A DNA stretch of 64,000 nt from Candidatus Marinacidobacterales bacterium (GCA_965237685.1 CBDEGF010000004.1:3743496-3807495), one strand, 5' to 3'. Positions 30,546 to 64,000 are shown, counted from the stretch's first letter. The notes: generated by a model not told the origin, from the sequence alone. Numbers and translations: made by a program.

Positions 30546-30552
30546 GACGGGT

Positions 30553-35679: not shown

Positions 35680-35716
35680 GACCCTAAGTCGGTCAAACCC
35701 CGTGAGGTCAAAATAC

Positions 35717-37439: not shown

Positions 37440-37516
37440 AGGGCTGATTTTCTTCCCAAGAACGCAGCAGGGACTTGACTTTCTTGCTTTTTGCGATTAG
37501 TCTTAATCTTCTATAT

Positions 37517-39503: not shown

Positions 39504-39762
39504 CAGTTCCCGTGCCATAAACCCCCTATTCCGGGGCGAATGCTGCGTATTCCGGGGCATCGTGAACGCAGATTCCAGCCGAAGGTGAACATCCATTCCA
39601 AAGCATCGTGAACACGGATTCCGGGGATCGTGAACATGGATTCCGGGGAAGGTGAACACGGATTCCAGGCAACGTGAACGCCGGTTCCGGCATCGCGAAC
39701 GCTCATCGATAGCACGTTTCAAGGCACTCTAGGTCGTACCCGGAAGGAGGACGATCTAGGAA

Positions 39763-41320
39763 ATGGCAGCTAAGAGGTTATCGATGAGAAAAATACGAGA
39801 GGTTCTAAGGTTAAAGTACGAGCTGGGTTTTACTCACCGCACGATCGCAAAGGCACTTCGCGTGGCGGTTGGAACGGTGAGTGAGTACCTGGCCAAGGCG
39901 AAGAAGGGTGGTCTGAGCTGGCCGCTCCCGGAGGAGCTGAGCGACGGGGAGCTGGAGGCAGGGCTGTTTCCGCCGCCGGGCTCGTCTGGCGCACGGCCGG
40001 GTCTGGACTATGCCCACATCCACGAGGAGCTGAGGCGTCACCGAGAGCTGACGTTGCTGCAGCTGTGGGTGGAGTACGCGGAGAATAAGCCGGGAGCGTA
40101 CGGCTACAGCCGTTATTGCGAGCTGTACGGTCAGTGGAAGAAGAAGCTGAACCCGACGATGCGTCAACGGCATCGAGCAGGCGAGAAGACATTCGTCGAT
40201 TTTTCGGGGGAAGAAGCCTCACATCGTCGATCCGAAAACGGGAGAGCTCGTCGAAATGGAACTGTTCGTCGGGACGTTGGGCGCGAGCAGTTACACCTAC
40301 GTCGAAGCGACACTGAACCAGTCGCTGGAATCGTGGGCGAAGGCCCATAAGGGGATGTCGGATTACTTCGGTGGCAGTACGGAGATCTGGGTTCCGGACA
40401 ACTTGAAGAGCGGCGTGGATTTGGTGGACCGTTACGAGCCAGGGATCAACCGGACGTACGAAGAGCTGGCGACGCATTACGGTGCGGTTGTGGTCCCGGC
40501 TCGGGTGTTCAAGCCGAAAGACAAAGCGAAGGTGGAGTCGGCAGTGCAGGTGGCGCAGCGCTGGATCCTGGCGGTGCTTCGTCATCGCACGTTCTTCAGC
40601 CTGGCGGAACTGAACGAAGCCATCTGGGAGAAGTTAGAGGTCCTGAATGCGCGTCCGATGCAGAAGCTCGGTGTGAGTCGGCGGGAGTTGTACGAAAGGC
40701 TAGACCGGCCCGTACTGAAACCGCTACCGCAGGAGAGCTACGAGTTATCGACGTGGAAGCGGTGCAGAGTGAACATCGACTACCACGTGGAGGTGGAGAA
40801 CAACTTGTACAGCGTTCCCTATCAGCTCATTCACGAGAAAGTCGAGGCACGGGTGACGGCCTCGGTGGTGGAGGTCCTGTTCAAGGGAAAGCGCGTCGCG
40901 TCGCATCCCCGCAAGAAAGGAAAGGGGCACTACTCCACGAACCCGGAGCATATGCCACGTTCGCATCGGGAGCACCTGGAGTGGACGCCGTCGCGGCTGC
41001 TCCACTGGGCGGAGCAGTCAGGTCGCGCCACGGGAAGGCTGGTTGCGGGGATTCTAGAGAGTCGGCCTCACCCGGAGCAGGGATTTCGCTCTTGCCTGGG
41101 AGTCATGCGACTAGGCAGCCGCTGGGGCAGTGAGCGTCTCGAGGCCGCTTGCGCACGAGCGGAAGCTTTGAGCTCTTACAGCTATCGCACGGTGAAAAAC
41201 ATTCTCTCGGCTGGTCTGGATCGTGTGGTGCTCGAATCGGACGCCGAAGCGAAACCGCGAGAGGAGCACGAGAACATCCGAGGCGCGGATCACTACGAAG
41301 GAGGAGAGTCCCGATGCTGA
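39763..41320 (+). pseudogene. istA: IS21 IstA transposase, +1 frameshift in a G-run at about 40213
   Basis: ORF 39763..40350 is the HTH N-terminus. ORF 40256..41320 is the DDE core. tcgggggaagaag has one G too many relative to the frame that restores the DDE-core frame (...FSGKKPHIVDPKTGELVEMELFVGTLG). Confidence 0.75.
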
Positions 41321-42072
41321 CACCCGGAACGATAGAAAAGATGAACGCCATGAAGTTGTTCGGCTTGGTGTCCGCGTTCGAAACCCAGTTGAGCTCGAGC
41401 GAATACAAGGAGCTGAGCTTCGAGGAACGTGTGGGACTCCTGGTCGATGCCGAGTGGACCGCCCGCGAACAGCGTAAGCTTTCTCGACGACTGCGAGCGG
41501 CAAAGCTCCGCTATCCGGCATGTTTGGAGAACGTGAACTTCCAAGCGCCTCGAGGCTTAAACCGCGAACAGATCTTGAGCCTGGGCAACTGCCGCTTTGT
41601 CGGTGAGCGCCATAACCTGCTCATCACCGGCCCGACGGGGATTGGCAAATCGTTCTTGGCTTGCGCCTTCGTGGAGCGGGCCTGTCGTCGCCGCTTCACC
41701 GGATGCTACGTGCGAGCACCGCGCTTGCTCCACGAGCTCGCGGTCGCTCGTGGTGATGGTTCCTACGCCCGGCTTTTGACGAAACTCGCCAAGCTGGACT
41801 TACTGGCTATCGATGATTGGCTGCTTCACCCGCTGAAAGAATCGGAGAGACGGGATCTAATGGAGGTCATCGAAGACCGCGCCGAGCGTGGCTCCACACT
41901 CATCGCGACCCAGATTCCGCTCAAGCAGTGGCACGAAGCGATTGGCGACCCAAACCAGGCAGACGCTATCTGCGATCGCATTCTCCACAGCGCGCACCGC
42001 ATCACTCTCAAAGGAGCTTCTCTGAGAAAGACCAAGGCTGCGCCAAAGGCATCTGACAACGCCGATGCATGA
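41314..42072 (+). CDS. istB: IS21 IstB ATP-binding helper
   Basis: ATGCTGA overlap with the istA stop. Walker A LLITGPTGIGKSFLACA, Walker B DLLAIDDW. Confidence 0.85.
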   Translation: MLTPGTIEKMNAMKLFGLVSAFETQLSSSEYKELSFEERVGLLVDAEWTAREQRKLSRRLRAAKLRYPACLENVNFQAPRGLNREQILSLGNCRFVGERHNLLITGPTGIGKSFLACAFVERACRRRFTGCYVRAPRLLHELAVARGDGSYARLLTKLAKLDLLAIDDWLLHPLKESERRDLMEVIEDRAERGSTLIATQIPLKQWHEAIGDPNQADAICDRILHSAHRITLKGASLRKTKAAPKASDNADA

Positions 42073-43722: not shown

Positions 43723-44540
43723 TCAGCCATTGGTGCGCCAATTCGGCGGCAGGGCGGCCATTAAATATGTGCAAACCAGACATGCTGACGATCGGGCAAG
43801 CGTTGTTCCGGATTCTGGTCGAATATGACTCAGGTTCCTCTGTTCATCTTTCCAATAGGACCATACGTCGAATTCGTCTTCCGGCCCCAGATCGAACGCG
43901 ACCGAGGACTGTTCGCCAACCGGAAGGGACTTGGTGCGTAAATTCAGGCCAGGGCCACAATTCGTTGCGTCTGGTTCACGGGACGGTGTCAACCGACCCT
44001 CCAGTCTGACCGGCAGAAGCTGGTTCAACCGAAGCCTGTTACGAAATGCGCCAAACCATTTATCGACCATCGTCTTGTAGATGCGCAACGCCGCCGAGTA
44101 AACCGCGATCGTTCGCTCGAGCAGTCGTTCATCACTATAGAGATCCCACACCCAACGGCCACTGTCCGTCAGCAAGTCTGCGGACGGCCACGGGTCGGCA
44201 ATAAGGCGGTCGCCACGGTCGACCAGTGTCGACAAATGACGTTTTACGAGCGTTACTTCATAATTTGAAAACTTGGCCGTTCCAACACTGACACTCATCC
44301 GGCGCCCCATCGGGTCGTCGACGGCACGGTTGATTGCATTGACAACGCTGAGTACCTCACGGAGATTGATTGGCGTCGGATCCAGGCTTCCTGATCGCTT
44401 CACTGCAAGGGCCAGAACCCACGCGAGTTCCCGAACTGCGTCATTTGACTCCAACGCAAACCACTTGGATTTCAAGGACTCGGACAGAGAATCGGCCAGA
44501 TAACCTTTCGTGGTCGACCACGGGGTGGCGGAGAGCTCGA
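43723..44540 (-). CDS. hypothetical protein fragment (N-terminus missing), lower GC
   Basis: About 270 aa of non-repetitive sequence (…NLREVLSVVNAINRAVDDPMGRRMSVSVGTAKFSNYEVTLVKRHLSTLVDRGDRLIADPW…YSAALRIYKTMVDKWFGAFRNRLRLNQLLP…). No match I can name. Its 5' side abuts the truncation point of the receptor fragment. Confidence 0.35.
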
Positions 44541-44559
44541 TGCCGCTCGTGTCGATGCC

Positions 44560-45709
44560 TTCAGGTAGGCGAACGTGTTGTTCCGCCGCGTCTGCCAGCC
44601 CGGCCGGTAGAACTGGTTCAGGTATGGGACGCCGGGCCACTCGCCGACCAGGCGGTCCCACCGCGGGTTGGCCTGGAAGTCGGCATCGCTGTAGAGCCGC
44701 TGGTAGGTGTCCTCGTGGATGCTGTCGTACGAGATGTAGCTGGTGAGATCGAGACGCCCGTGCGACGAGACCAGCTTGGCGGCGACGTGCTCCCGCTCGT
44801 TCCGCGCCGCACCCTGCACCCAGTCGGTCGCCTCCTGGCGGACCGCGGCGATCCAGGCGCGGGTCTCACGGCCGAACAGCGGCCCGGTATCGACCCGCAT
44901 GGAGAACCGCTTGCCGTCGTTCTCGCCGATGGTGGTCGACGCGGTGTAGGTCCGCTCCGCCGCCGGATCGTCCGTGATGAAGTTGAAGGTGCCGCCCAGC
45001 GCTTCGACCGACCGGGAGACGATGTCAGCCGTCCCCTGCGACACCTCGACACCTCCAAGGTTCATCGGGTCGATGAACCGATTCGCCTTAGAGCCGCTCC
45101 AGTAGTCGGACGTGCCGTTCGGGAATCCGTCGATGGTGGTGCCGATCTGCGCTTCGTTGATGGTCACCTGGAAGCCGCGCACGGCGACGTTGCTCGACCA
45201 GTCATCGAAGCCGTACGCGTCCCCCTCCTGGATGGATACTCCGGGGAGGTTGTCCACCATCGACGTGACGCTGGTGATGTTTGACTGCTGCAGCATCATC
45301 GGTTCGGCGACGACGTTGCGCGCAAAGATCTGGGGCTCCTCGGCGATGACGCTGACCGTTTCGAGCAGGCGGGCGATCTGCAGCGTGATCGAGACCGATG
45401 CGGTGGCGCCCGCCTGGACGGAGACCGGGGCTTCCGCCGTTTCGAAGCCCTGCAGCACCGCCGTGACGACATAGTCACCTGCCGCCAGACCGGCGGCGGT
45501 GTAGGCGCCGTCCACGCCGGTGACGTGTTCCTGGCGCACGCCGGGACCCGCCACCGTCACAACGACGCTGGGCAACGGGCTGCCGTTCGCGTCGACGACC
45601 GCGCCTTCAATCGATCCGGTCGTCTGGGCGGCGGCCCGCGCAGCCGGTAACGAGAGCAGCAGGACGGCGACGGCGAGCGGTACAGCGATGGGCGTGTGTC
45701 GCTTCATGG
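44560..45709 (-). pseudogene. TonB-dependent receptor N-terminal fragment (signal peptide, CarboxypepD_reg, plug), truncated at about 44560
   Basis: MKRHTPIAVPLAVAVLLLSLPAARAAAQTTGSIEGAVVDANGSPLPSVVVTVAG...VSVIAEEPQIF...NLPGVS.... After NTFAYLKA the frame decays. Confidence 0.65.
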
Positions 45710-45789
45710 CAACTCTCATAAGACTAGCGTCCCCCTCTCCACCTACTGTCACCGAACGGCGCTTCGAGATTTTACATCTATTACGGGTG

Positions 45790-47000
45790 GATTGCTGCGC
45801 GGTCACGTCGTGTCCAAAAACACAAACGAACTCAAGACCGGCTCGCCGGGACGTTTCGGAATAGACGTATCTACGCTTGATTGGCCAATGGGAGCTAGAA
45901 TCCTCGGTCATGAGCACGCCGATCCAGCCCTTGACATTGTTGGTCATCACCATCGCTGGTTGGATCCAGCGTGACCAACAGGCCGCTATGGTCTACTTGC
46001 TCGAGGAGAACAAAGTCCTCAAAGCTCGGCTTTGCGGGAGGAAGCTTCGTCTCACAGACGACGAGCGACGTCGGCTCGCGGTAAAGGGTAAGGCGCTTGG
46101 CCGGAAACTCTTGGCAGAAGTCGCCGGTATCGTCACACCGGAAACCCTGCTGGCTTGGCACCGAAGGCTGATTGCGCGGAAGTGGGACTACAGCGAGCGG
46201 CGGAAACAGCCCGGACGGCCCCGGGTCATGGCCGAGATTAGCAAGCTTGTCGTAGGGATGGCGAAGTCGAATCCGAGGTGGGGGTATACACGCATTCGCG
46301 GCGCCCTCTCGAATCTCGGCCATACGGTAGCCAGGAGCACCATCGCCAATATTCTGCGAGAACATGGCATCGAGCCCGCGCCGGAGCGAAGTGAGCGAAC
46401 GCCATGGCGCACGTTTCTCGCCGCCCATTGGGAAACCGTTGCTGCGACCGACTTCTTCACCGTCGAGGTCGCCACAGTTCGCAGGCTCGTGACCTACTAT
46501 GTGCTGGTCGTCATCGAGCTGTCTTCGCGAAAAGTGCACATTGCCGGAATAACTCCCGGGCCAGATGGCCCGTTCATGATGCAGGTCGGTCGGAATCTCA
46601 CCGACCCATTCGACGGCTTTCTGCGCGGCAAGCGATTCCTCATCCTGGACCGCGACCAGAAGTTCACCACGGAGTTTCGCGATTTGCTCGAGCACGCCGG
46701 AACGGACGTCATTCGGCTGCCGCACCGTTCGCCGAATCTGAACGCTTATGTCGAAAGGTTTGTTTTGTCGATCAAGAGCGAGTGCTTGGAGCGGATGATC
46801 TTCTTCAGTGAGCAATCGCTGCGCCGTGCCGTCGCTGAGTTCATCCATCATTATCACGGAGAGCGCAACCATCAAGGGCTCGGGAACGCGTTGCTCGAAG
46901 CGGAAGAATGCGTCGGCAGTCCTCACGGGAAGGTGCGATGTCGTAAGCGATTGGGCGGTTTGCTCAGCTATTACCACCGCGACGCCGCATAGGAGTTCGG
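45790..47000 (+). mobile_element. second IS481-type element, about 65% identical transposase to the multicopy one; right end not identifiable
   Basis: Left terminus at 45790-45870 is shared with 35717, 23875 (inverted), 36525 (inverted) and 60405 (inverted). Transposase 45910..46992. Confidence 0.6.
45910..46992 (+). CDS. IS481-family transposase (HTH + rve)
   Basis: MSTPIQPLTLLVITIAGWIQRDQQAAMVYLLEENKVLKARL...NPRWGYTRIRGAL...LILDRDQKFT...SPNLNAYVERF...ERNHQGLGN. The ORF also offers a TTG at 45877. Confidence 0.75.
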   Translation: MSTPIQPLTLLVITIAGWIQRDQQAAMVYLLEENKVLKARLCGRKLRLTDDERRRLAVKGKALGRKLLAEVAGIVTPETLLAWHRRLIARKWDYSERRKQPGRPRVMAEISKLVVGMAKSNPRWGYTRIRGALSNLGHTVARSTIANILREHGIEPAPERSERTPWRTFLAAHWETVAATDFFTVEVATVRRLVTYYVLVVIELSSRKVHIAGITPGPDGPFMMQVGRNLTDPFDGFLRGKRFLILDRDQKFTTEFRDLLEHAGTDVIRLPHRSPNLNAYVERFVLSIKSECLERMIFFSEQSLRRAVAEFIHHYHGERNHQGLGNALLEAEECVGSPHGKVRCRKRLGGLLSYYHRDAA

Positions 47001-51442: not shown

Positions 51443-52626
51443 GCACTATCGCGTCCTGTGCCAAAACTCGGCCCTTTTGAAATAGGCCATAAATCAGCAG
51501 CTTAGTGTCTGTGTTTGCGCCGGGGCCAAGGGCCGTAGGCTTTACAATCGTCTGGCCCGAGGGTGTTATCTTCAGATCCATGATGACGTACCACGTGCAA
51601 TTCCTACTGCTCGTTCTAGCTGGCTGGGTCAACCGCCAGCAGCAGGATGTGATCGACTACCAGCAAGAGGAGAACCGTGTGCTCCGAGCCGGGCTTCGGG
51701 GCAAGCGTCTCAGTCTCTCGGACGACGAGCGGCGCAGGCTCGCGGTCAAGGCCCAGGCTTTGGGCCGCGAGGCGCTGGCCCAGATTGCGTCCGTTGCCAC
51801 ACCCGCTACGCTTCTGCGCTGGTACCGCCACCTCATCGCAGCCAAGTACGATGGCAGCAAGAACCGGAGTCCAGGCCGACCTCCGACGGCGAAGGACATC
51901 CGTGAGCTCATTGTGCGCGTGGCGCGGGAGAACCCGACGTGGGGATATACGCGCCTGCGAGGCGCACTCAAGAACCTAGGACATGAACTCGGACGCAACA
52001 CTATCAAGAGGATCCTCGCCGAGCACGGTATCGCTCCTGCGCCGGAGCGGGGCAGGAGCATGTCGTGGAGCACCTTCATCAAGGCTCATTGGGGCGCCAT
52101 CGCTGCGACAGACCTGTTCACCGTCGAGGTTGTGAACCCGTTCGGGCTCGTCCGCTACCATGTCCTGTTTGTCATCGATATCGCCACTCGCTGCGTGTGC
52201 ATCGGTGGGATAACGTCGGACCCCAACGGGGAGTGGATGAAGCAGGTGGCAAGAAACCTCACTGACATGTGGGATGGTTTCCTCCTTGGCAAGCGATACC
52301 TCATCCACGACCGGGACCCGCTATTCACCGAGGCGGTACGTGGGCTGTTGAGAGATTCAGGCGTGAAGCCCCTTCGCCTTCCCGCTAATAGTCCGAATCT
52401 GAACGCATATGCGGAAAGATTCGTTCTCTCCATACGTCGAGAGTGTCTCGACCGCTTCGTACCTCTCAGTGAGCGACACCTGCGCACAGCGGTAACCGAA
52501 TACGTAGTGCACTATCACACAGAACGGAACCACCAAGGTCTCGGCAACGAGCTCCTCACACCTCTGCCGGCAAGCGCGAATGACGCTGGCCCCATCGTGT
52601 CGCGAGAGCGACTTGGGGGCATTCTC
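51443..52626 (+). mobile_element. IS481-family element, copy 4, 3'-truncated at 52626 where an IS630 remnant begins
   Basis: Transposase 51505..52665. Identical to other copies up to ...GGILNYYC, then diverges (HDEQIRCP*) at the junction. Confidence 0.75.
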
Positions 52627-53480
52627 AACTACTACTGCCACGATGAGCAGATCCGTTGTCCATAATCCAGAATACTCGTCTGGCGTGTCGATAAGGGGTT
52701 CGCTTCATAATCATCTCGACGAGCCGATCGAAGGGTGCAATTCCATTGTTGGGTTCGCATCGGCCAAAGATCTTCATTCGGTGAACATCCACTGCGGCCA
52801 GGTACGCCCAGGCTCCGAGCCTTTCATACTCATGTTCTACTTTCATCGCCGACCCAGGGCGAGTCGGTATGGTCTCATGACGTCGATGGCGTGCTTGAAT
52901 GCTCGTTTTTTCGTCCGCACAGATCACGAATTCGTCTTCTCTGAGGGGCCGTCGCCTCCAACGCCGTTCGTACAAGTCAAGTATGGGCCCGGCTTTCGCG
53001 GCGAAGTTCGGATCCCTAGGGAAGACCCAAGAGCGATGTTGCCAGGGTCGGATGGCGTCCTCACTGAGCCAGCGCCAGATGGTGGTATTGCTGACGGACG
53101 CCACAAGCCCCGATTGACGCACATGGTCGGCGAGTTCGGAAGTGCTCCACCGCGACAGAGGTACTCCCAGTGTTGAGGGTAATTCGCAAGCGATGGCCTT
53201 GACCTCAACGACTACCTCTGGGGGGAAAAACCCGGGGACGCCCCAAGCGTTCCCGATCTTCCAGACCGGAAAGACGTTGGTCGAAGAACCTTTTGCGCCA
53301 CATGCTTACCACCTCACGTCGCGTGTTGAGGCGTTGCGCAATCTCGTCGTTGGCGAGACCCTGGGCGGCCAACAGAATCATTCGTGCACGGAGTACATGA
53401 AAATACGGCAACGTTATATTTCCGTGCCCTCCGCTGGAGCTCCAACTTCTCTTTTGGGCTCAATCGTATTTTATATGGGC
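52627..53480 (-). mobile_element. IS630-family remnant: HTH ORF (53205..53411) and DDE ORF (52625..53122) in different frames, 3'-truncated
   Basis: WVFPRDPNFAAKAGPILDLY...FVICADEKTSIQA...[11 protein letters not shown] is the DDE_3/IS630 pattern. ARMILLAAQGLANDEIAQRLNTRREVVSMWRKRF is the HTH. AT-rich left end, then an IS481-family end fragment at 53583-53637. Confidence 0.65.
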
Positions 53481-53774
53481 TGTGTCGAGGCATACTTGAT
53501 GCTCCGTTTCGCTGAGTATGTAGTCATCGCCTCGATATTGCAAATTAAATATACGTTAGTGTATTTAAGAAACCGCCTACTAAGTTGCTGATTTATGGCC
53601 TATTTCAAAAGGGCGAGTTTTGGCACAGGACGGGGTCAAAGCTAGCAGCTAGCGGGCTGACGCATCGTGCCAACGTGTCTTTGACCCCTCTAGGCAATCA
53701 TAGTAGTATGTTTTCTGCTCGTTCGGGCTTCTGCACCACGCAGCTTGGCGGTTAGTGACCCTCGAATCGAGGTC

Positions 53775-53869
53775 GGAGAGGTGCTGGAGTGGCTGATCAG
53801 GGCTGCCTGCTAAGCAGTTACACGGGTGATGAGCTTGTGTCGAGGGTTCGAATCCCTCCCTCTCCGCCA
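53775..53869 (+). tRNA. tRNA-Ser (anticodon GCT), type II with long variable arm
   Basis: Acceptor GGAGAGG/CCTCTCC. Anticodon arm GCTGC-CTGCTAA-GCAGT with U33 and GCT at 34-36. Long variable arm. T-arm GAGGG-TTCGAAT-CCCTC. Discriminator G plus encoded CCA (53867-53869). Folded by eye. Confidence 0.75.
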
Positions 53870-54160
53870 CCTAGTCTTGCCAATTGTGGCACTGCAGAGA
53901 CGCGTGAGAATTTCCGCGCGGTTGGCGGGGTTTTGCAAGGGTAGGTGGCACCAGAGACGCGCTAGAAGGGGTGAACTGGCCTCATTTTCGGGATTCGTCT
54001 CTAATCTCGATTTTCGAGTGCCAAGTTTGCGCCAAATAGGGGAGCGGGCGCTGACTGGGCCGAATGGTGGCGGAAAAAAGGCCACCTGAGAGGCCCGAAT
54101 CGAGGCCGGGGCTACCGTGGCGTAACTGGCATAGCAAGTTCTGGTCCAGTTGCGGCCTGG
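53860..54160 (+). repeat. about 290-bp direct repeat, copy A, starting at the 3' end of tRNA-Ser; copy B at 59500..59790 (about 90% identical); partial third copy at 30243-30310 (inverted, cut by IS21)
   Basis: CCAATTGTGGCACTGCAGAGACGNGTGAGANTTTCCGCGCNGTTGGCGGGGTTTTGCANGGGTAGGTG...CGAGGCCGGGGNTACCGTGGCGTA...GTTCTGGTCCAG is shared. The tRNA end tctccgccacc| parallels catccgccaccc| at the start of copy B. Confidence 0.65.
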
Positions 54161-54169
54161 GCCTCCTTT

Positions 54170-54491
54170 ATGTCCATCATTCCTCAGGCCTGGGTCCAGG
54201 TCCTTCGCCCGGGAGCATGGCATCCCGTTTCTGGACGTTTCCCTGAGCACTTGAAGGAGGCCAAAGTATTGATTGAAAGGTGGCGGCGAGAGTTCAATCG
54301 CTTCAGACCCCACAGCTCGTTAGGTTACCGACCGCCAGCTGACCGAGCTGCACCTTCAAAACACGCTTCTCCTCCTGCAGATACTCAAGGACCTTCTGCT
54401 GCTCCTGATTCAGCCAACCGGCCAGGAACGAAACCAGGGAGATTGGTGGCAAGACAAATGGGCTCATCGCAAGCATCTTAGCCGAAGTCAC
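54170..54491. other. convergent IS fragments: IS3/IS481-type transposase C-terminus (+, LKEAKVLIERWRREFNRFRPHSSLGYRPPA) and an IS481-type N-terminus (-, LAGWLNQEQQKVLEYLQEEKRVLK)
   Basis: Short motif-level matches only; both truncated. Confidence 0.4.
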
Positions 54492-54604
54492 TTACCGCTG
54501 CCGAAGATGACCAGCTGAGTTCTTGCACCATAAGGGTCACCTCATCCGAGCTCAAGCCTCTCAGCCGAAAAGAATCCCACACCTCGCATGCAGCCACCTT
54601 CCAT

Positions 54605-55944
54605 TCATTCATCGTCTATCTGAAATAGATCATCTTCTGGCTTACCCTCGGCCCGTCGCTTGACGGCCTTCTCAAACGCTGTCACCGCTCTCAATTGTTC
54701 AGTTGAGAGCGCTTCCCTGTCGATACTAGCGACCGCTCCCTGTATTGCCTCAATTGAAACGAATGACTCGATTTGGGATAGCTTAATGTACCAGTGAGTC
54801 TGGTACACGTGGTCGTCTATGCCATGGCTGCGGTCCTGCAATAGGAACCGCTCCAGGAGTTCCGCGACACCCTCGGATGTGCGGATCCGCTCTTCACAGA
54901 ATTGCTTCGGCTGGTCTGAGTCCCCCGCCCATTCGTGCCACTTGTAGAGAATCGATATAAAGTGGCGAGAGCGAATGAATGTCCCGTCAGCTGCGGCACG
55001 CCTGATCTTTTCGACACACAGCGCTTTCAGCTTCTCCATCGCGTCAGGATCCAAGAAGCGTTCAGCTGGCTCCTCTATTTGTCGCTCCAACTCGAACGAT
55101 ACGATATGCATCGGTAGGGCCAATCCCTCCGTCTCTGTGACGGCGTCGACGATTACGTCCGTGCGCTCTGCTTCGGTGAACGCGTCCTGCTTGAGGTACC
55201 AGTACACGATCCGTCTAGCATGCATGTGAGCCGATATCTCGAACATTCCGTCTTGGTCGTCGGGAATGTCCTCGCTGATATCAAACAGGGCCGTAACGAA
55301 TGCCCTTGCATGCCGGGATCGATTTTTTGTTTATAGGCTTCGAGGCGTTCCAACGTGACCTTCAGGAGGCCATCTGCCGCGAGCCGTTGGAGGGCTGTCC
55401 GAAACGCAGTCCGGTCGTGTGTCGCCACTAGGAGGTTCACGATCTCCGTCTCGGAAATCTCACCCTCTGGTGTGGTGAGCACGAAGTACCGATCGAAGAT
55501 GTCGTCCGAGCACACTCGGAGGTCGAGTTCCCAACTCTCGTCGAGCGTCGAATCTGTGGAGGGAAATAGCTGCTTGACTATCTCTTTTACCTGCGCCTCA
55601 CGACCTTGCGAGGCGGCACTGACGATCGTACGCACAGCCTCGCGTGCTTGGTCGTTCTCGTGCCGCTCCGTGAGCGCTGCTTTGTTCTCGCGAATGAAGC
55701 GGTGAACTGCAGGCTCGAACATCCGGAGAGTCTCAAGAGCAATAAGATCTATCGGGTTGACTTCGAAAGCCTGCTGGCTCCGAAAGACTGCAACGTGGAA
55801 AGAGAGCGTTGACAGAAACCGTTTGACGGCGCGCAGTGTCTGAAAATACGGCTTGAGCCCGCCGAAAAAGAGATTGCCCCATCGAGTCTGGTCGAAGCGC
55901 CGAGCAACTTCGACATCAGCCATGAGCTCGTTTAGGCTGCTCAA
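54605..55944 (-). CDS. hypothetical protein of about 445 aa, split over two frames near 55230
   Basis: ORF 55153..55944 (TTG start; ATG at 55923) and ORF 54605..55246 read as one continuous soluble protein (…LEAYKQKID / EISAHMHARRIVYWYLKQ…). No P-loop or other motif I can name. Upstream in-frame stop at 56044. Confidence 0.4.
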
Positions 55945-56041
55945 AAGGACGCGTCGGATCTTGATTGGCTCGATGGCGGGAATGTCGAACGGTGCCTGGA
56001 TCCCGTCTCCGTGGGTAACCCACGGGGGTGTGCTGTTGCCG

Positions 56042-56848
56042 ATGTATCAGTCCGAGGCCTTATGGATAGGACTCGACGGGACCTGGGTCGATAAGCACGG
56101 CACCGAGTACCCGTTCGCGGTGAAAGTCGCTGCGGGAAAGATCGACGCGGTCACGGGCAAGACATGGACGAACGACCTTGGCGCGAGCCCGCAAAACTAC
56201 ATGGTCGTCCCGGAACAGCCGTGGCTCGATGGCTTCTGTGTCGACAAGGGCATCATTCGGCAATTCGTGGCAATGCCACTGGGTGGTGGATACACAGCCG
56301 AGGAACAGGTGACCGGGAAGGCTGAGTATGGTGGGCTCCAAATCCTCGTACATCCCATGCGACGAGACGCGTTCGAGCGCCGATTCCCAGAGCGCCCCGC
56401 CGGAGGGTATGCGCGCGAATCAGAGGGCCACGTTTGCTTCAGCCCCCCGAGCGCTGACATGGGGCTGGCCCCGGGTGGGCGGATGAATCAGGAGATATTC
56501 GAGGACCCCTTCGGCATCGACGAGTGGGATAGAACCGCAGGCAGTCGCTGCTACGTGCACATGGCCAACTCACTGGTGTGGGAAGCGATCACCGGAGAGA
56601 AGCCTCCCACACCCCCGCCGACCGCGAAGACCTATACGGACAATGGACTGTCTTGGTTCGACTACTACGCGGAGGGAAGCAAAGCGCTCGACGGCGCCGA
56701 GGAGCTCAAGCGACTCAAGAGCGTCCTTGAGATGGGGAATCAAAAAGGCGACACGCCCCTCCCGGAGAACGAATCCGTCACGCCGGACCGGGTGATACGG
56801 TATCGCGGCGGCCGGGCCAAGAGACAGGTACGTGACGGAGCGTTTTAA
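56042..56848 (+). CDS. hypothetical protein (269 aa), divergent from the 54605..55944 gene
   Basis: ATG at 56042 after a 100-bp divergent intergenic gap. High GC3 and non-repetitive composition (…EQPWLDGFCVDKGIIRQFVAMPLGGGYTAEEQVTGKAEYGGLQILVHPMRRDAFERRF…). No recognisable family. Confidence 0.4.
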   Translation: MYQSEALWIGLDGTWVDKHGTEYPFAVKVAAGKIDAVTGKTWTNDLGASPQNYMVVPEQPWLDGFCVDKGIIRQFVAMPLGGGYTAEEQVTGKAEYGGLQILVHPMRRDAFERRFPERPAGGYARESEGHVCFSPPSADMGLAPGGRMNQEIFEDPFGIDEWDRTAGSRCYVHMANSLVWEAITGEKPPTPPPTAKTYTDNGLSWFDYYAEGSKALDGAEELKRLKSVLEMGNQKGDTPLPENESVTPDRVIRYRGGRAKRQVRDGAF

Positions 56849-57664
56849 CGGCCACTCCCCGATATCCAGTCACTGGCATCCCTGATCCCAGCTGGATAGA
56901 AAACGCAATTTGGGATACGCGCAGGACTCACAGCCAAACTTGACAACGGGCTCAGTCGTACCAACGTTGAGCCGACCTCTGAGCCGGTGCCACCTCCAGA
57001 GACTACCGCGTTTCATTCATTCGGGGTGGCCGTCAGATCGTGGAAAACTTGACAGCAATGGCACCGCCCGCGTGGGCGGAGGTCATCGGGGAGTGACCGA
57101 AATCGTTCGTTCACTCGAAAGTACCCGCACCGGCCCTGGGACGTAGTCTGGAAGCAGCCCGGCCCATGCGGAGCACGGCGATCTGCGCGAGGGTGTGAGA
57201 CTTCGATGAGCCGCGTCCGCCACGCGCCGATTTGTACCGCGCCGACCGGAGGAACGGCTTAGCCCACCTTGGGCTCGTCGCCCGGCCCAGGCCCGGGGCC
57301 GTCGGTTGCGCCGCCCTCGGCCGAATCGACTGGGTCGACGATTGCAATTTCGAATCGCTCCTTTAGCTCGCCCGAGTGCTCGATCCAACGCGCAAAGCCC
57401 TTCGCTCTCCGTTCGAGCCACCACAATGCGCCCTTAATCTCCGGGGTACGGTGCTCCATAGTAACTTCTGTTTATTTTCGTTCCGTCAAGAATCTTGCGA
57501 ACGTGCTTTGGCGTCGAGACAAAGCTCGTGCTGGGCGATTCACCGAAATCCGTCGACCGAACACTGAAACACTGTCATATTTGCCCCCGCAGATCTGGGC
57601 GCTCCAGGGTCCCGCCCGAGATGCCCCGCCGTCATACATCTCCTGCAGAAACAGCAACAACAGT

Positions 57665-58348
57665 TCAACCTATGCCGATCTGCTCGGGCGGGTTCGCGAT
57701 GATCTCCCGCAGCCTTGCCGCAGTCAGGTCGATCTCGTTCCTAAGTTTTTTCCTCACCACATTTTTTTTGGCGACTTTGAATTCTTCCTCTAGCTTCTCA
57801 AGTTTCGCCAGCAATTCTTGCTCTTGCGCGACCCAAAGATCGTAGACGACGTTCTCCTCCTTCGTCATAGGACCGACGATGCGCGCGGTGCCGACCCGCA
57901 GGTCGAGCTTGATATCATCGGGATGCGGCAGGAGCGGCTCGGCATCGGTGATGCCGAGCCGTTCACGGCGCTTGAGTTCCTCTTCCCCAGCGATTTTGTG
58001 GTCCATAGCTACTTGGACGAACTTGTCGCATATCTCCATCTTCTCTCGCTCGATCGAGGTCAGCATCTCGGTAAAGAGCCGTTGGGCGCGAGGCTTGCCC
58101 TTGGCGGCCTCGACGGCCAGTGAGCGGATGATTACCTGTGCAGTCGGCAGCGTAACGGTGCGGTCTCCGTCGCGGACGGTGATCGTGCGATAGGCTTCTT
58201 CGAGCACGATGGCCTTCAGCCGCTCTTCAGGCCGCACGGGCTTGCGGGACTTCGCGCCCTTCGGTCGGCCGCGCGGATTCCCGGACTGGCCCTTCTTGAA
58301 GCGGTGCGCCGTTGGTGGCTTGCCATAGCCGACCTCGTCCTGTGCCAA
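57665..58348 (-). CDS. DUF5681-like protein
   Basis: N-terminus MAQDEVGYGKPPTAHRFKKGQSGNPRGRPKGAKSRK is the characteristic DUF5681 opening, a family typically seen on plasmids, phages and ICEs. Coiled-coil C-terminus. Confidence 0.55.
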   Translation of the reverse strand: MAQDEVGYGKPPTAHRFKKGQSGNPRGRPKGAKSRKPVRPEERLKAIVLEEAYRTITVRDGDRTVTLPTAQVIIRSLAVEAAKGKPRAQRLFTEMLTSIEREKMEICDKFVQVAMDHKIAGEEELKRRERLGITDAEPLLPHPDDIKLDLRVGTARIVGPMTKEENVVYDLWVAQEQELLAKLEKLEEEFKVAKKNVVRKKLRNEIDLTAARLREIIANPPEQIGIG

Positions 58349-58802
58349 AACTCGGCCCTTTTGAAATAGGCCATAAATCAGCAGCTTAGCGACTGGGCCA
58401 AGGGCCCCTAGGCTTTACAGTTACCCCACCCGCGGTCGACCTTCGAGAGCCGCGCCGTTTCACCGGACGGCAGAGGACGGCGAGCTGCTGCCGAAGAGCG
58501 ACATTGTCAAGAGCCAGTTCGCGACGAGCCTTGAAGGCGGAGATGAGAGCGCGAACAAACGACGAAATCAAGCAGGTATGGTGCCGGCAGACCGGAGACT
58601 AATCAAGTTCGGGGCGCCCGGATGAATAAATAGAAGGTACAGGCCCTCACTGCGCTCGAGCAACTCCACGGTGAGTTAGAAGAGCGGAACCAATCCGCAG
58701 CTGGCAGCCTGGAGGAAGGCCTCGAGGAGACGCTGACGAGATCTGTCCTTTACTTTGTCTATTCATGAGTCTCAAGTCCTCGCCTACTCGCTCCAACGGA
58801 CC

Positions 58803-59372
58803 CTAGTTCCCGAGCTCGTCAGAAGGTGGGACAGCAACTGGTCGAGCATCATGCCCCTCCCCCGCACTCTCCACAGCGCTTGCGGATTCATCGGGCCGTG
58901 GCGATAGTGCTCGCGAGGGTGCAGACGGCGCCTCTTTCTCCGGGGAAGATTCCTTGGCTTCGTCATAAGGAAGTCTGGGAGCCTTTGGTACATACGGCAC
59001 GAGACCTTCCATCACTTGACGATAGAAGCGTTCCACACCGTCCGCAATACCAGCGAGGACATGTACACCGGTCCGCCCACGTTTGGCCGCCAAGCCCTTA
59101 GTCCAGCTGAGTATAAAGACACGAGGCTGCGCGTCTCCGGGGATCGCCACTCGATCAGAACTCACCATGAGCGGCATGTGCCCGTCTTGAAGGGCGTCAA
59201 CCAACGCTTCTGAGTACAGCCCCCGTTTGTTCCAATCCACACGCACGCGCAACCCGTGGGGGAGGTCGTCGGTGCCAAGCTGCCGCAGCAGCCAGGTAAG
59301 CCGAGTCTTCGTTCTGCCTTCCCTCGGCGCCGGAAAACTGACCGAGAACCGTACCACCTTCCCCTGCAGCAT
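58803..59372 (-). CDS. hypothetical protein (about 190 aa) with P/S/E-rich C-terminal tail
   Basis: Probable start MLQGKVVRFSVSFPAPREGRTKTRLTWLLRQL... inside ORF 58803..59531. The ORF's 5' part overlaps repeat B. Confidence 0.35.
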   Translation of the reverse strand: MLQGKVVRFSVSFPAPREGRTKTRLTWLLRQLGTDDLPHGLRVRVDWNKRGLYSEALVDALQDGHMPLMVSSDRVAIPGDAQPRVFILSWTKGLAAKRGRTGVHVLAGIADGVERFYRQVMEGLVPYVPKAPRLPYDEAKESSPEKEAPSAPSRALSPRPDESASAVESAGEGHDARPVAVPPSDELGN

Positions 59373-59499
59373 CAACTCATCAGGGCTTCTCTGAGTTTTC
59401 GCTACATTGCCCCAACCACGCGCACGGCCAAAAGTTCGATCCTGACTCCCAAAATTGCCAAAATACCTTTTGCCGAGACCGGATGGCTCGAGACTGCAC

Positions 59500-59790
59500 C
59501 ATCCGCCACCCAGTCTGGCCAATTGTGGCACTGCAGAGACGGGTGAGATTTTCCGCGCAGTTGGCGGGGTTTTGCAGGGGTAGGTGTCACCAGAGACGCG
59601 CTAGAAGAGCTGAACTGGCCTCATTTTCGGTTTTGGTCTCTAATCTCGATTTTCGAGTGCCACGTTTGCGCCCAAATAGGAGAACGGGCGCTGACCGGGC
59701 CGTGCGGCAGCGGAAAAGAGGCCACCCGAGAGGTCCAAAATCGAGGCCGGGGTTACCGTGGCGTAGCGGGCTAGCACGTTCTGGTCCAGG
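59500..59790 (+). repeat. about 290-bp direct repeat, copy B
   Basis: See copy A. Followed at 59800-59880 by a segment shared with 25880-25935. Confidence 0.65.
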
Positions 59791-60778
59791 TGTGCCTGAG
59801 CTTCATTGATGCCCTCACTTGCCTCGGATTTTGTATCAACAAGGATCCGGCAAGGCTTGAGAGCATCCCGTCCATCGTCGCTCTCCGGCCCGTTGTTGGT
59901 CGGCCTTTCTTAGGAAATCAGCCCTTCTGTCCAAATTGCAAGATTTTCCGCAACCCTCGGCTCAGGCCCGTTCGGCGCAAAGGAAACGCTTGCTAATGAC
60001 CACGCTGGAGCAGGAAGCCGCTGCCATTCCTACCACGCCAACCCGGTTCCGCATCGCCGCAGTTCCTCTCGGCGCCGCTCGTAGTCCCTCATAACCCGTC
60101 TCCGACGGCCTGCCAGTAGCCACGGCCGTAGCCGCGGCGTAGCGGACTAGCAACGTTGTGGCATCGTCGGGTCGACCGGTACGGAAGCCGATTGCGGCAG
60201 GTCTAAACCGCGCAATCAACGCCGGACCGACTTTTTGCGGAGCACAGGTGGAAATACTGCACGCTGTCGCCGCCTGGCCACCGACGCAATGACGTGCTGA
60301 ATAAAGAACGCGTTGTGCGCCGCAAGAAGCTAGGTGATCGGTGTCCTCATGACCGAGGATTCTAGCTTCCATTGACAAACCAAGCCTAAACACCTCTAAT
60401 CCGAAACGTCCCGGCGCGTCGGTCTTGAGTTCGTTTGTATTTTTGGACACGATGCCGTCAGGCAGTGGAAAACTTGACAGTACCGGCGTGACTGGCAAGC
60501 GCGTCGTGTCCTATCTTTCCCCAGGCCTGGATCCAGGTCTTCGCTCTGGGGGCGTGGCATCCCGTTGCTGCACGGTGTCATGCCGATGGCATCGGCTTGC
60601 TCCCGCAACGTCAACTAGTAAGAAACTCAGGGTGTAACGTTTGGGGGCAGTGACGTCAAAACCGAGCTTCCTCAGGCGTCGTGTTGAGCCGGTGCCACCT
60701 CCAGAGACTACCGCGTTTCATTCATTCGGGGTGGCCGTCAGGCCGTGGAAAACTTGACACTACCCCTCCATCGTCGCA

Positions 60779-62833
60779 CTAATCGACCCCCAGACTCTTG
60801 AACGCCGCATCTCCTGGATCCGAGTAGAAGCTGGTCTGAAATTTTGAAAACAATTCTCCAGGAATGGTCGGGATGTCCCCGACGCTCGCCATAGGAAGCA
60901 GGATTCTCTTCGCGCCGGCGTCAAATGCGACCTGAAGTGACCCGGCGAGATTTTCGACCGGAACGATGCTCCCACCGAGGCTCATACTCCCCAGCACGAC
61001 CATTTGTGATTGAACCGACTTACCGAGGATGCCGGAACAAAGAGCCACAAATGTTGCAAGCGTCATTGCCGCAGTCGGTCCTGTGTTTTGAAGTTCGACC
61101 ACATGCAAGTGAAAGTTGTGATCACCGGGTTTTACTGAGGCACTGACCGAAGAGGCATTAGCTTTGAAATAGTCGAAACCGACCTTAATACTTTCCTTTG
61201 CTGTGATATTGGACCCCACGCCGGATAATGTAAGCTTGCCGTTTCCGGCGGTGACCTGGGTCTCGATCCGGTAGACACCGAGGTGCCCACTACTACCAGT
61301 TGCGACGGTGTGAAGTACGCCAGGGTTGAGCGGGCTGTCAGGTATGAGGGCACCCCCTCCCTGCTCAGGAACGCTGATAAACCGTTCCTCCATCGGCTCC
61401 GGGGCGATGTAGGAAAAGTGGACATCATAAAACTCCATCCCACCAATCTTCTTTAACTGCTCTTTTACCCTTCGCCGTGTCTCGAGAGCGTATTCCAGGC
61501 AGCGCCGCACGGCTTCCTCATCGTACTCTTCGTTCGGGTACAGAAGCTTAAGCAGGCCAGAGACAGTGTGCCTGACCGCGATGGTGTCCCGCTGATTCAG
61601 ATCTCGGCCTAGCTTGAAGTATTTGTTGACCGCATCGCCGAAGTTCCGCTTGCGCATCTCGCGCAGGAACTCAGCCAGATAATCGACGATCAGCCCATAC
61701 TGGTTCGTGAAGAATTCCGGCCGCATCTTCGGGATCTCCCAGCCTGGAATATAGGCGTGGAAGCGGTCGAAGAATGCGGAGTCGATCATGGCCTCTGGAA
61801 ATGGAGCCAAGAGATGGCTTGTCTTGACCAACGTGTCTACAGGCTGGTTGATGTTGCCGACGAAGACCATCGACGCATAGGCGTTCACCTGGTCGCGACC
61901 TCGGGCGAACGATCCAGACGCCATATAGTCCTTCATGATCTGAACGCCAGCATTGTCCTTGAAGCTGATTCCGGCGACCTCGTCGAATGCCACTACATCC
62001 CAGAGCCCGACCAGCCCAACGGTTCGGCTGGCCAGGTTGTAAAACAGGTTCGCAACGGTAGTCTGCCCCCCGGAGACAAGGATGCTATTCGGACTGATTT
62101 CCTTATAGATATAGCTCTTTCCGGTTCCCCTCGGACCCAACGCGCAGACGTTGTAGTTGTTCTCCACCAGCGGTACTAGACGGCACAGCAGGTGCCACTT
62201 CGTGCGCTCATCGAACTGCGTTGGCTCATACCCGCAGGAACGCAACAACACATCAATCCACTGTGCCTCGGTAAACTGACGCCTCCCGGCGAACAGTTCG
62301 TCCATGTCCATGTTCGGCATCTGGATTGGATTGAGCTCATCGACAATGAAAGGCGACCCCTTTTGCCCCTCCTCATAAAAATATTGCGTCGTAATGATCG
62401 ACCAAATCCCGCCAACCAGTAACTTCTCGTATTTTCGGACTGTCTCCGTACCGATTCCGACGCCCTTCGTTCCCAGGTTCGACAAAAGCGCCTCGTAGAC
62501 ATCTCGTTTTTCATTCAGCGTGACCGTCACCTTATCGATAACCTTCAAACTGCCCCGCTCGCGGATGGTGGATTTCACCCTTTCTGCCTCGTCCGGCCGC
62601 ACGTAGTTCTCGGAGAGGATGCGCTTCACGGTAGCCAGACCGTCCTCGATCACGACTGGGTCATTGGAGGCACAGTAGTTACCAAGCAGGTACTCGAGGA
62701 CATAGACGGGAACGTTCGCGCCTTCCTTGACCAACTTGGTCAGGTCCTTGCGCACGACACGCCCCGTGAAATGCGCATTGAGCAGATCGTCGAGGCTGGG
62801 ATCGGTTGCGGCAGTCTCAGAAGTCGAAGTCAT
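60779..62833 (-). CDS. brxL: BREX system Lon protease-like protein BrxL
   Basis: 684 aa. The N-terminus FTGRVVRKDLTKLVKEGANVPVYVLEYLLGNYCASNDPVVIEDGLATVKRILSENYVRPDEAERVKSTIRERGSLKVIDKVTVTLNEKRDVYEA is the conserved BrxL opening. P-loop ALGPRGTGKSY. C-terminal Lon-like domain (…VVELQNTGPTAAMTLATFVALCSGILGK…VVLGSMSLGGSIVPVENLAGSLQVAFDAGAKRILLP). Confidence 0.85.
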   Translation of the reverse strand: MTSTSETAATDPSLDDLLNAHFTGRVVRKDLTKLVKEGANVPVYVLEYLLGNYCASNDPVVIEDGLATVKRILSENYVRPDEAERVKSTIRERGSLKVIDKVTVTLNEKRDVYEALLSNLGTKGVGIGTETVRKYEKLLVGGIWSIITTQYFYEEGQKGSPFIVDELNPIQMPNMDMDELFAGRRQFTEAQWIDVLLRSCGYEPTQFDERTKWHLLCRLVPLVENNYNVCALGPRGTGKSYIYKEISPNSILVSGGQTTVANLFYNLASRTVGLVGLWDVVAFDEVAGISFKDNAGVQIMKDYMASGSFARGRDQVNAYASMVFVGNINQPVDTLVKTSHLLAPFPEAMIDSAFFDRFHAYIPGWEIPKMRPEFFTNQYGLIVDYLAEFLREMRKRNFGDAVNKYFKLGRDLNQRDTIAVRHTVSGLLKLLYPNEEYDEEAVRRCLEYALETRRRVKEQLKKIGGMEFYDVHFSYIAPEPMEERFISVPEQGGGALIPDSPLNPGVLHTVATGSSGHLGVYRIETQVTAGNGKLTLSGVGSNITAKESIKVGFDYFKANASSVSASVKPGDHNFHLHVVELQNTGPTAAMTLATFVALCSGILGKSVQSQMVVLGSMSLGGSIVPVENLAGSLQVAFDAGAKRILLPMASVGDIPTIPGELFSKFQTSFYSDPGDAAFKSLGVD

Positions 62834-62874: not shown

Positions 62875-63423
62875 TCAATGCCGGTGTCGGCATCCCGGAG
62901 AACCAGCCTGTATGGCGTACGTTTGTCGTATGGTCTGTCTCGCAGGGTGGGGTAAGTTCGTGGATGCTGAGCTACCCGAGAAGTGGGCTATCGATGGCAT
63001 CCAGAACCAGTACGCATTCTTCGACCGACGGGTAGCTGGACAAGTTTGGGCAGTACGCATCTGATCCGTGGATCTTGGTGGCAAGAAGTCCAGGACGAAG
63101 GAGTCATTGGCGCTCGCATGACGGAGCAGTTGCAGCACTGCGTCGGCTACGTCACCCTCCGAGTCCTGACGAACGGTGACCGGATCAAGGTCTAATTTCC
63201 CGATCCTTCCAGCCGAGACCATGCTGAGAATGTGTCGCTGCGCCTCAATGTGCCCTGGCTGGGAAGGACGCAGCGCATTCTGCATCACACTCAGCGCAAT
63301 AAGGGTGTTTTGTGGCACCCGTATCGGGGAGAGCTCAGCTTCGATAAGTGGCAACAATTTGAAGTGCGCGGCGTTCAGAATGGCCGTGACATCCGCATTG
63401 AGCCGCCACTTTTGACTTGGCAC
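62875..63423 (-). pseudogene. disrupted ORF immediately upstream of brxL; possible C-terminal remnant of the preceding BREX gene (pglZ)
   Basis: 182-aa ORF whose last about 30 aa look out of frame. A separate 57-aa frame (...RLVLRDADTGIEQASLDVIIDRAIIDDFDF*) ends in a TGA that overlaps the brxL ATG by 20 nt, typical operon coupling. No long minus-strand ORF between 62834 and 64000. Confidence 0.3.
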
Positions 63424-63482
63424 TACTGGTAGTGAACCGGTGATCCTGCCTCCGAACCGTTGGTTGACAGGACAGGGATAGC

Positions 63483-63971
63483 ATGCGGATTGTGGGTACC
63501 GTTGACCTGCTTAGCTGGCTCAGAGACACTGGGAAAATGTCGCCCGCTGATTTCGCGCAAGCGCTCAATGATATGCGGGCAGCAGACGTACGGTTCGTTG
63601 CGTTCGATGCGGACGAACTTGTTGCCGCGTTACGCGAGGCTCCGATTGAAAACGGCACACTGGTTGAGACTAAAACTCTACGTGTGCTGCGACAGTACTA
63701 CGCACGGTGTTTGCTCGAAGCGGATATACTCCGTCCTCCGCCGGGGGACAAGGAAGCGCTCAACACAGCAACAGAGTGGCATTTCCTCTTTGGCTGTGGC
63801 CTCGCTGTTGTGAAAGCCATGGTCAAGGTCTGGGAAATTGGCCCAAGCGATCGTGCGGTCGAGCAAGCCGAGTGGCTGCTAAACAACATGTATACGGACG
63901 TCGCGGTTTTCATGGGACTGCCGCACCACGGACAGAAGCCAAAGATGCATATCTTGCGAGCGCGTCGCTGA
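63483..63971 (+). CDS. hypothetical protein (162 aa)
   Basis: ATG at 63483 and coherent composition (MRIVGTVDLLSWLRDTGKMSPADFAQALNDMRAADVRFVAFDADELVAALREAPIENGTLVETKTLRVLRQYYARCLLEADIL...). The antisense ORFs here look spurious. Confidence 0.4.
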   Translation: MRIVGTVDLLSWLRDTGKMSPADFAQALNDMRAADVRFVAFDADELVAALREAPIENGTLVETKTLRVLRQYYARCLLEADILRPPPGDKEALNTATEWHFLFGCGLAVVKAMVKVWEIGPSDRAVEQAEWLLNNMYTDVAVFMGLPHHGQKPKMHILRARR

Positions 63972-64000
63972 CAAATTTGATCGTGGGCTCAATGCGCCTG

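Follow-up and report, generated by a model that had tools for sequence, protein, structure and literature searches.

A conserved ~330-bp non-coding module as a probable site-specific recombination site at a tRNA-Ser gene of Candidatus Marinacidobacterales

What has been inserted behind a tRNA gene that is followed by two long direct repeats with no integrase gene between them? The question arises in a 64,000-nt stretch of DNA from Candidatus Marinacidobacterales bacterium (GCA_965237685.1 CBDEGF010000004.1:3743496-3807495), called the window below, where a reading made from the sequence alone (the sequence-only reading) had described the interval 53775-59790 as an island integrated at tRNA-Ser. 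Two 290-bp repeats of about 90% identity were taken there as attL and attR of a single integration, with four open reading frames (ORFs) matching no family of known function between them and an orphan brxL directly downstream. Our analysis suggests that the repeats are probably copies of a conserved non-coding module of ~330 bp which serves as a site-specific recombination site, and that ~11 kb of DNA was inserted through it at tRNA-Ser. The flagged 5.6 kb itself is ordinary and consists mostly of truncated genes; it is the repeat module that stands out.

The split module and the insertion at tRNA-Ser

The direct repeat, identified by a repeat finder and by self-BLAST, is real, but slightly longer and less similar than had been described: segments 53863-54185 and 59502-59825 are 86.9% identical over 327 aligned columns (E=3e-100). 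The tRNA-Ser(GCT) gene is present as had been read, and the first copy (A) starts within its last 7 nt (TCCGCCA). An intact module consists, in order, of a 35-nt P arm, which ends ...GAGACCGGATAGCTCCAAACTGCACCA, the core TCCGCCA and a P' part of ~290 nt, which opens CCCAGTCTGGCCAATTGTGGCAC. The features needed for the argument are listed here; labels such as L001-L087 denote loci, L001 being the source contig around brxL, which matches the window at 100% over 13.2 kb.

53775-53869, plus strand: intact tRNA-Ser(GCT), found by ARAGORN and Rfam, with a promoter-like site at 53681-53709
53863-53869, plus strand: core TCCGCCA, which forms the final 7 nt of the tRNA and is the block identical in the module; attL-like junction
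53870-54185, plus strand: module copy A, P' half alone, with the tRNA in place of the P arm
54176-54237, plus strand: right-flank segment D5 (class 0), with a second copy at 60513-60574
59378-59825, plus strand: module copy B, intact, with S1-type left flank 59378-59464, P arm, core CCGCCA 59503-59508 and P' to 59825
59826-60510, no strand assigned: right flank of B (class 1), common to the S1 units L018, L079 and L025 up to ~60137
30238-30550, minus strand: module copy C, with S2-type left extension carrying TTCCCTGTT iterons (30326-30550), P arm, core and 62 nt of P' only
64900-64931, window-equivalent (L001 7903-7934, minus strand in L001): solo P arm and core, end of the insertion

When all fetched loci were searched for the P arm, a second match was found in L001, where an S2-type left flank, the P arm and CCGCCA are followed by AACCGTCTTTTTTTGACAAGACG... 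and no P'. The attR-like core of this junction (window-equivalent 64926-64931, read from the source contig) lies 11,062 bp downstream of the core in tRNA-Ser, 0.9 kb outside the window; on its 3' side stand the native AACCGTCTTTTTTTGACAAG... and the tRNA-Gln promoter, with tRNA-Gln(CTG) 59 nt on, then hemY and hemE. In a five-way alignment, the attL-like sequence reads tRNA...CTCTCCGCCA before the exchange point and CCTAGTCTTGCC after it, the attR-like one reads ...CACCATCCGCCA and AACCGTCTTTTT, and the intact module reads ...CACCATCCGCCA and CCCAGTCTGGCC. The two half-modules are exactly reciprocal at CCGCCA, and the tRNA 3' segment, in the form of a repeat of 7 nt only, recurs at the far boundary next to the native flank. 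To judge from the alignment, this is the pattern expected from site-specific integration. The junctions show ~11 kb of foreign DNA (53870 to window-equivalent 64931), brxL included, inserted at tRNA-Ser, and a module whose two parts, separated at TCCGCCA, now stand at tRNA-Ser and at the tRNA-Gln promoter. The island proposed earlier, decayed, without a recombinase of its own and joined to tRNA-Ser through a short att-like core, is borne out, but copy B is not its far end, the partner junction being the one downstream of brxL.

In a sister genome (L053), hemE-hemH-hemY-tRNA-Gln are followed, after ~170 nt, by a 14-nt exact tRNA-Ser(GCT) 3' end (L053 4886-4899, plus strand), which adjoins a P4-like tyrosine integrase. 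This order suggests that tRNA-Ser(GCT) natively precedes tRNA-Gln and that the site is a hotspot for different elements.

Copies A and B are 87.9% identical over the 280-nt P'. By closeness to B, copy A ranks 54th of 83 copies, the best match of B being L015 from another genome (94.7%), while A is roughly equidistant from all module copies. Since A and B are not closest relatives, no duplication at this locus gave rise to them, and the assignment of the two repeats as attL and attR of one integration has to be abandoned. In a three-copy alignment, B and C have 26-37 nt in common to the left of the A/B junction, where A has the tRNA; this sequence has no counterpart in A, and B therefore cannot be read as a plain second att copy. 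The similarity between A and B spans 320 nt of non-tRNA DNA, that is, it is not confined to the crossover core. The core of copy B divides the insertion into 5,639 bp (53870-59508) and 5,423 bp (59509-64931), and both halves open with P' and close with a P arm and core, which is what two tandem units would give. The flagged 5.6 kb, being the left half, may be either a newer, tandem-accreted unit or a part of one element with a nested, decayed recombinase unit.

The module family and its exchange point

A 24-mer invariant in copies A, B and C was used as the family probe and matched 86 stretches, several per contig, so that the repeat family comprises at least 86 copies across nine Candidatus Marinacidobacterales genomes (Acidobacteriota, Vicinamibacteria). 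This number is a lower bound: a module copy in L027 with probe mismatches escaped the exact 24-mer. Coverage profiles outline a discrete unit of ~330 bp at a depth of 80-90 copies, and the consensus of 85 distinct aligned copies is more than 90% conserved in its first 220 nt. In ~79 of the 86 fetched loci, the P arm (GAGACCGGATAGCTCCAAACTGCACCA) and TCCGCCA are followed by P' as CC(C/T)AGTCTGGCCAATTGTGGCAC..., the core having the same letters as the last 7 nt of tRNA-Ser. Along P', the variability among aligned copies is 1% beside the core and up to 16% at the distal end, which locates the constraint at the exchange point. The core is bracketed by an imperfect dyad with short half-sites, CCAAACTG-N14-CAGTCTGG, read from the consensus (in full, CCAAACTG-CACCATCCGCCACC-CAGTCTGG); its centre is a non-palindromic CC inside TCCGCCA.

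The size of the family agrees with the earlier suggestion that the repeat is mobile or has been copied, and the partial third copy noticed at that time is real (copy C; similarity span 30238-30325, minus strand). The objection foreseen by the same reading, a widespread repeat unrelated to the tRNA, applies in its first half and fails in its second, for the repeat is widespread but not unrelated to the tRNA. In the literature searched, DUF2924 and DUF5681 each turned up in one paper and Marinacidobacterales in none; among site-specific integrative DNA, the module family is a variant not described before.

Several other identities of the module were considered and rejected. As to a structured RNA, the Rfam scan matched the tRNA alone and gave no family for the module, the consensus fold is weak (RNAalifold, -25 kcal/mol for 323 nt), and the z-scores of single-copy folds against shuffles are an unremarkable -0.7 on the plus and -2.2 on the minus strand. 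As to a protein-coding repeat, only 15 of the 233 indels are divisible by 3, and the variability per codon phase is 0.086, 0.103 and 0.093, without a 3-nt period; a minus-strand ORF ending ...GANVALENRD shifts its reading frame between module copies. The P arm is not a decayed tRNA 3' half, as alignment scores are no better than those of shuffles and there is no likeness beyond the core. The candidate for a right terminal inverted repeat, TGCGCGTACGGGGAACCC, is internal, and conservation extends past it.

The remaining copies, save one (L073), have the P arm replaced at CCGCCA. The replacements are tRNA-Ser(GCT) here, tRNA-Ser(TGA) in three genomes, tRNA-Asp(GTC), the stop codon of a Dam-like methylase gene and, in a fourth genome, a displaced 46-nt tRNA-Ser(TGA)-like 3' fragment, which is fused to the module within the L053 island. 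These comparisons show the same exchange point recurring at other tRNAs, and flanks that reassort. In 48 copies, 18 combinations of left and right flank classes were found, compared with 18.1 +/- 1.1 expected for independent and 7 for linked classes. The left and right flank classes are statistically independent, that is, in complete linkage equilibrium, which suggests frequent exchange at or within the module. The D5 segment that comes after copy A comes after the module in ~30 copies.

Two further observations concern individual loci. At the tRNA-Ser(TGA) loci L003 and L044, the junction between tRNA and module is kept, and the modules are 87% identical, compared with 76.6% for the flanking genes; here the module is more conserved than neighbouring coding DNA. 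In L027, two intact modules (2736-2767 and 7845-7876) stand in direct orientation 5.1 kb apart, in the same geometry as copies A and B; the second of them is the copy that escaped the 24-mer.

In the S2-type copies, among them copy C and the attR arm, the module is extended on the left by 230-300 bp that carry iterons, TTCCCTGTT or GGTTATAACC. To the left of the P arm (window 30326-30550, L001 7940-8250 and the S2 loci), TTCCCTGTT is present in 6-8 copies, one of them inverted, and the palindromic GGTTATAACC takes its place in the other class; the arrays look like putative binding sites of a DNA-binding protein.

To the right of the modules, 107 non-redundant ORFs within 3 kb include HsdR (five to six times), Cas1, DrmD, DruE, TmtA, PbeA, a type IIG enzyme and BrxL, so that genes of type I restriction-modification, BREX, Druantia, DISARM and CRISPR systems are represented. 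This tally covers 0.25-3 kb from the module in loci L002-L087 and consists of raw counts without a control for the genome background. Defence genes are frequent in this range and lie mostly on the opposite strand.

The candidate recombinase and rival explanations

Upstream of the module, ~35-40 of the 86 loci have a DUF2924 ORF and a gene for a 553-aa large serine recombinase (Resolvase and Recombinase domains), the recombinase stop codon lying 0.7-0.9 kb from the module; S2-type copies do not have this arrangement. The S1 recombinase units begin sharply at a 58-bp terminal repeat (R58) of the type found in IS481-like insertion sequences (ISs), with a different flank each time, and their right ends are heterogeneous. 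No target duplications were seen at two units with R58 at both ends, which were inspected as a test for the terminus of an IS or a miniature inverted-repeat transposable element (MITE). In the window, the following trace was found.

57510-57565, plus strand: large serine recombinase gene relic of 56 bp (~aa 439-469), lying upstream of copy B and oriented like it

Pfam applied to the main ORFs, together with tblastn for the serine recombinase and a P4-like integrase, identified inside the island this relic only. The sequence-only reading was correct in that the interval holds no recombinase ORF, but the relic had escaped it.

In the reading that we prefer, recombination between a module and the CCA end of tRNA-Ser brought in the ~11 kb. 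The fusion of tRNA-Ser with P' (copy A) is the attL-like product, and the fusion of the P arm and core with the tRNA-Gln promoter the attR-like one. The predicted catalyst is the 553-aa large serine recombinase with DUF2924, which may act in trans from any of the numerous intact units and would cut at the central CC of the imperfect dyad. Should the serine recombinase linked to the module act on it, Acidobacteriota would provide a simple attP/attB pair, formed by the module core and the tRNA-Ser end, and also a mechanism for defence-island building in these 8-10 Mb, IS-rich genomes. A broader scheme, in which the pair of DUF2924 and the large serine recombinase, spread on IS481-type transposons, swaps DNA at the 330-bp module and tRNA CCA ends and builds or reshuffles defence islands in an integron-like manner, seems unlikely to us.

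Several observations weigh against the preferred reading. More than 90% of the module copies are intact (P and P'), an oddity if integration uses the site up. A single attR-like junction was found, the loci having been fetched by a P' probe that leaves attR sites unsampled. The 7-nt identity block suits the overlap region of a tyrosine recombinase at least equally well, and the S2-type copies, one third of the total, are without a recombinase gene nearby. The left ends of the recombinase units are the IS481-like terminal repeat with unique flanks, which suggests that these units move by transposition and not via the recombinase. Finally, no close relative yielded an empty tRNA-Ser/tRNA-Gln site, the site in L053 being occupied by the other island: hemE and hemY form singleton clusters, no relative reaching 90% identity, and the one other contig stops 103 bp past hemY; on the left flank, synteny with sister genomes stops at the IS repeat at 51452; and a metagenome scan with a 30-mer from the tRNA 3' end gave 120 unrelated tRNA-Ser loci, with the module in none of them.

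It is quite possible, if short of probable, that the insertion grew by tandem accretion, the left 5,639 bp being a unit integrated at the regenerated tRNA end ahead of an older brxL unit of 5,423 bp, and copy B being their junction. The order P' to P arm and core in each half would follow from this, as would the recombinase relic upstream of the P arm of the left half, which is placed as in S1 units; flanks reassort at modules in any case, and L027 has another pair of modules in direct orientation. Arrays of mobilisable islands in tandem at att sites have been described (PMC2297512) and offer a precedent. However, the flanks of copy B, 139 nt on the left and 620 nt on the right, are colinear with the intact S1 units L018 and L079, so the P-P' junction of B need not have arisen here, and attL is not a substrate of canonical large serine integrases. 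More doubtful is an unlinked tyrosine recombinase with TCCGCCA as its 7-bp overlap and the iterons as arm-type sites, the serine recombinase being a passenger. The identity block measures 7 nt. S2 modules resemble an attP with arms in their 6-8 iterons (TTCCCTGTT or GGTTATAACC) to the left of the P arm and in the repeated GTGGCAC..AGAGACG motifs of P'. Tyrosine integrases typically target tRNA 3' ends, and the tRNA-Ser site is indeed used by the P4-like integrase island of L053. On the other side, the dyad is centred on a non-palindromic CC, as serine integrases require, and in tblastn the L053 integrase, the one tyrosine integrase noted beside a module, matched neither any other module locus nor the window (other tyrosine families were not searched).

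Explanations that dispense with a recombination site fare worse. Dispersed MITE or IS debris, joined by homologous or IS-mediated rearrangement with no site-specific event, would fit the at least 13 R58 copies and five or more IS families in the window, the synteny break at an IS end without target duplication and the fact that the interior genes of the flagged interval are all fragments. We consider it improbable, as the junctions of four independent contexts, three of which are tRNA 3' ends, fall at the same nucleotide, and the half-modules are reciprocal at CCGCCA with an exactness that chance or IS breaks would not repeat to the base. Even less credence can be given to a host cis-element (a terminator, an insulator or a small RNA gene) behind genes, homogenised by gene conversion. 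The module does sit downstream of tRNAs and of convergent genes, has terminator-like hairpins on both strands and is more similar between L003 and L044 than the coding DNA around it, but its fold is weak and without an Rfam match, and the split half-modules and reassorted flanks would be left unexplained.

Cargo, insertion sequences and known systems

The contents of the insertion and the IS to the left of the tRNA are as follows.

51452-53637, no strand assigned: IS481-like insertion sequence, with rve_3/HTH_32 transposase (51505-52665) and 58-bp terminal inverted repeats (R58)
54240-54470, both strands: two putative transposase gene fragments read from the sequence, an rve-type C-terminus (plus) and an N-terminal fragment of another transposase (minus)
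54605-55944, minus strand: PifA-like KAP NTPase pseudogene, profile positions 300-469 of 720, in two reading frames
55998-56848, plus strand: 5'-truncated copy of a widespread uncharacterised family of ~340 aa
56980-57054, plus strand: 75-bp repeat D2, with a 97% identical second copy at 60685-60759, shortly downstream of brxL
57665-58348, minus strand: DUF5681 gene (E=3e-23)
58331-58643, minus strand: IS end, the R58 terminal repeat and ~250 bp with a transposase N-terminal fragment, recurring more than 30 times in related loci
58803-59372, minus strand: 5'-truncated remnant of a lineage-restricted gene
60779-62833, minus strand: brxL, intact and orphan, inside the 11-kb insertion (BrxL_N, BrxL_ATPase, Lon_C)
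within 62875-64000, minus strand: 182-aa ORF with no family match
63483-63971 and past the window end, plus strand: start of a frameshifted gene, in the segment 62875-64000

The four ORFs of the left half are located where the sequence-only reading had placed them, and the DUF5681 assignment is correct. The statement that none matches a family with known function is wrong for the first: its segment 55153-55944 matches the PADLOC profile PifA, a KAP NTPase (E=3e-8). By its frame and profile coverage, 54605-55944 is a 5'-truncated, frameshifted pseudogene. The family of 55998-56848 has 6,098 matches of ~340 aa, ~60% identical across phyla, with no Pfam or PDB match and only weak matches to Ig-like folds. 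The copy in the window is without ~75 N-terminal codons; the same truncated fragment occurs in unrelated contexts of sister genomes, and in another genome IS256 interrupts a copy whose N-terminus is intact. In the DUF5681 ORF, the six initial codons are terminal bases of an IS inverted repeat, so the native 5' end is lost. For 58803-59372, 17 homologues were found, the closer relatives being 50-61% identical and 234-314 aa long; the similarity to them begins just ahead of the first codon, near the start of the module flank, and a paralogue has a different 5' end. NCBIfam gave no match for any cargo ORF, and PHROGs matches were confined to DUF5681 relatives of unknown function. The four ORFs are unrelated gene fragments, and the interval is a mosaic and no coherent functional module. 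Of the possible defence-related module suggested earlier, remnants of defence genes are present, whereas a coherent uncharacterised module is replaced by four unrelated, truncated fragments.

The only intact interior gene is brxL, in the right half. It was rightly called an orphan: a test for a BREX system found brxL alone, with no brxA, brxB, brxC, pglX or pglZ, its neighbours being unassigned ORFs and hemY/hemE. The right flank of copy B (59826-60510), which precedes brxL, contains short dispersed repeats and possibly a DUF45-like C-terminal remnant on the minus strand; it is missing from the orthologous brxL locus L057 (CBDCYI010000005.1). In L057, brxL (98% identical DNA) is interrupted at +1889 to +2931 from the module by a ~1-kb insertion, and the module sits 685 bp nearer brxL than copy B does in the window. 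Beyond brxL, 63483-63971 and its continuation (L001 8372-9127, minus strand) hold two overlapping ORFs in different frames, which together resemble a single frameshifted gene (~330 aa) without a family match.

Outside the insertion, the right end of the IS481-like element at 51452-53637 lies 137 bp upstream of the tRNA; it has no target duplication, and synteny with sister genomes breaks exactly at 51452. R58 (CTAAGTTGCTGATTTATGGCCTATTTCAAAAGGGCGAGTTTTGGCACAGGACGGGGTC) is found at 13 sites in the window (18754-58389) and at more than 100 in the fetched loci, and bounds at least five IS481-like copies in the window, for example, 25937-27371 and 51452-53637. Segments 15840-16742, 20866-23502, 27544-42072 and 44472-45953 contain IS256, two IS21, IS66 and ISLre2-like transposases along with truncated housekeeping genes, such as an ammonium transporter starting at profile position 92 and fragments of TonB receptors. 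The region is heavily eroded by ISs. Segment 47825-51451 (DUF6311/glycosyltransferase) is 99% identical to L089-L092 in genomes of several species, in contrast to hemE/hemY (L001 5255-7755), which form singleton clusters at 90% identity; the window is mosaic, with recently shared stretches beside species-specific ones.

In comparison with known systems, the locus resembles P4-like islands integrated at tRNA genes in that the insertion abuts the tRNA 3' end and element-borne last bases keep the tRNA intact, the reciprocal junction is a displaced core beside the native flank, and the cargo consists of defence genes and ISs. It differs from them in its 7-nt core, in having no integrase in the island and in that the att-like site is part of a 330-bp module, mostly unsplit in its at least 86 copies, the long repeats being independent family members. 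With large serine recombinase elements (phiC31, Bxb1; TnpX/TndX) it has in common a 553-aa Resolvase and Recombinase protein close to a candidate imperfect dyad with a non-palindromic central dinucleotide, and hybrid attL- and attR-like sites; here, however, the gene in the island is a 56-bp relic, an IS481-type terminal repeat forms the left boundary of the recombinase units, and activity is predicted. Serine integrases do not usually target tRNA ends.

The serial arrangement of two P'...P units behind a single tRNA, separated by an intact module, recalls the SGI1-type tandem arrays (PMC2297512), but the boundary module here is colinear with pre-existing intact units and a nested origin is equally possible. 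Like MITEs, REP/BIME and Correia-type repeats, the module is multi-copy, non-coding, intergenic and lineage-restricted; unlike them, it has no established terminal inverted repeats or target duplications and has a fixed exchange point and reassorted flanks. A purely functional comparison, with no membership claimed, is with the integron sites attI and attC: although no IntI-type integrase, attC hairpins or promoter-cassette array is present here, the module likewise is a conserved site at which flanking DNA, often with defence genes, is swapped.

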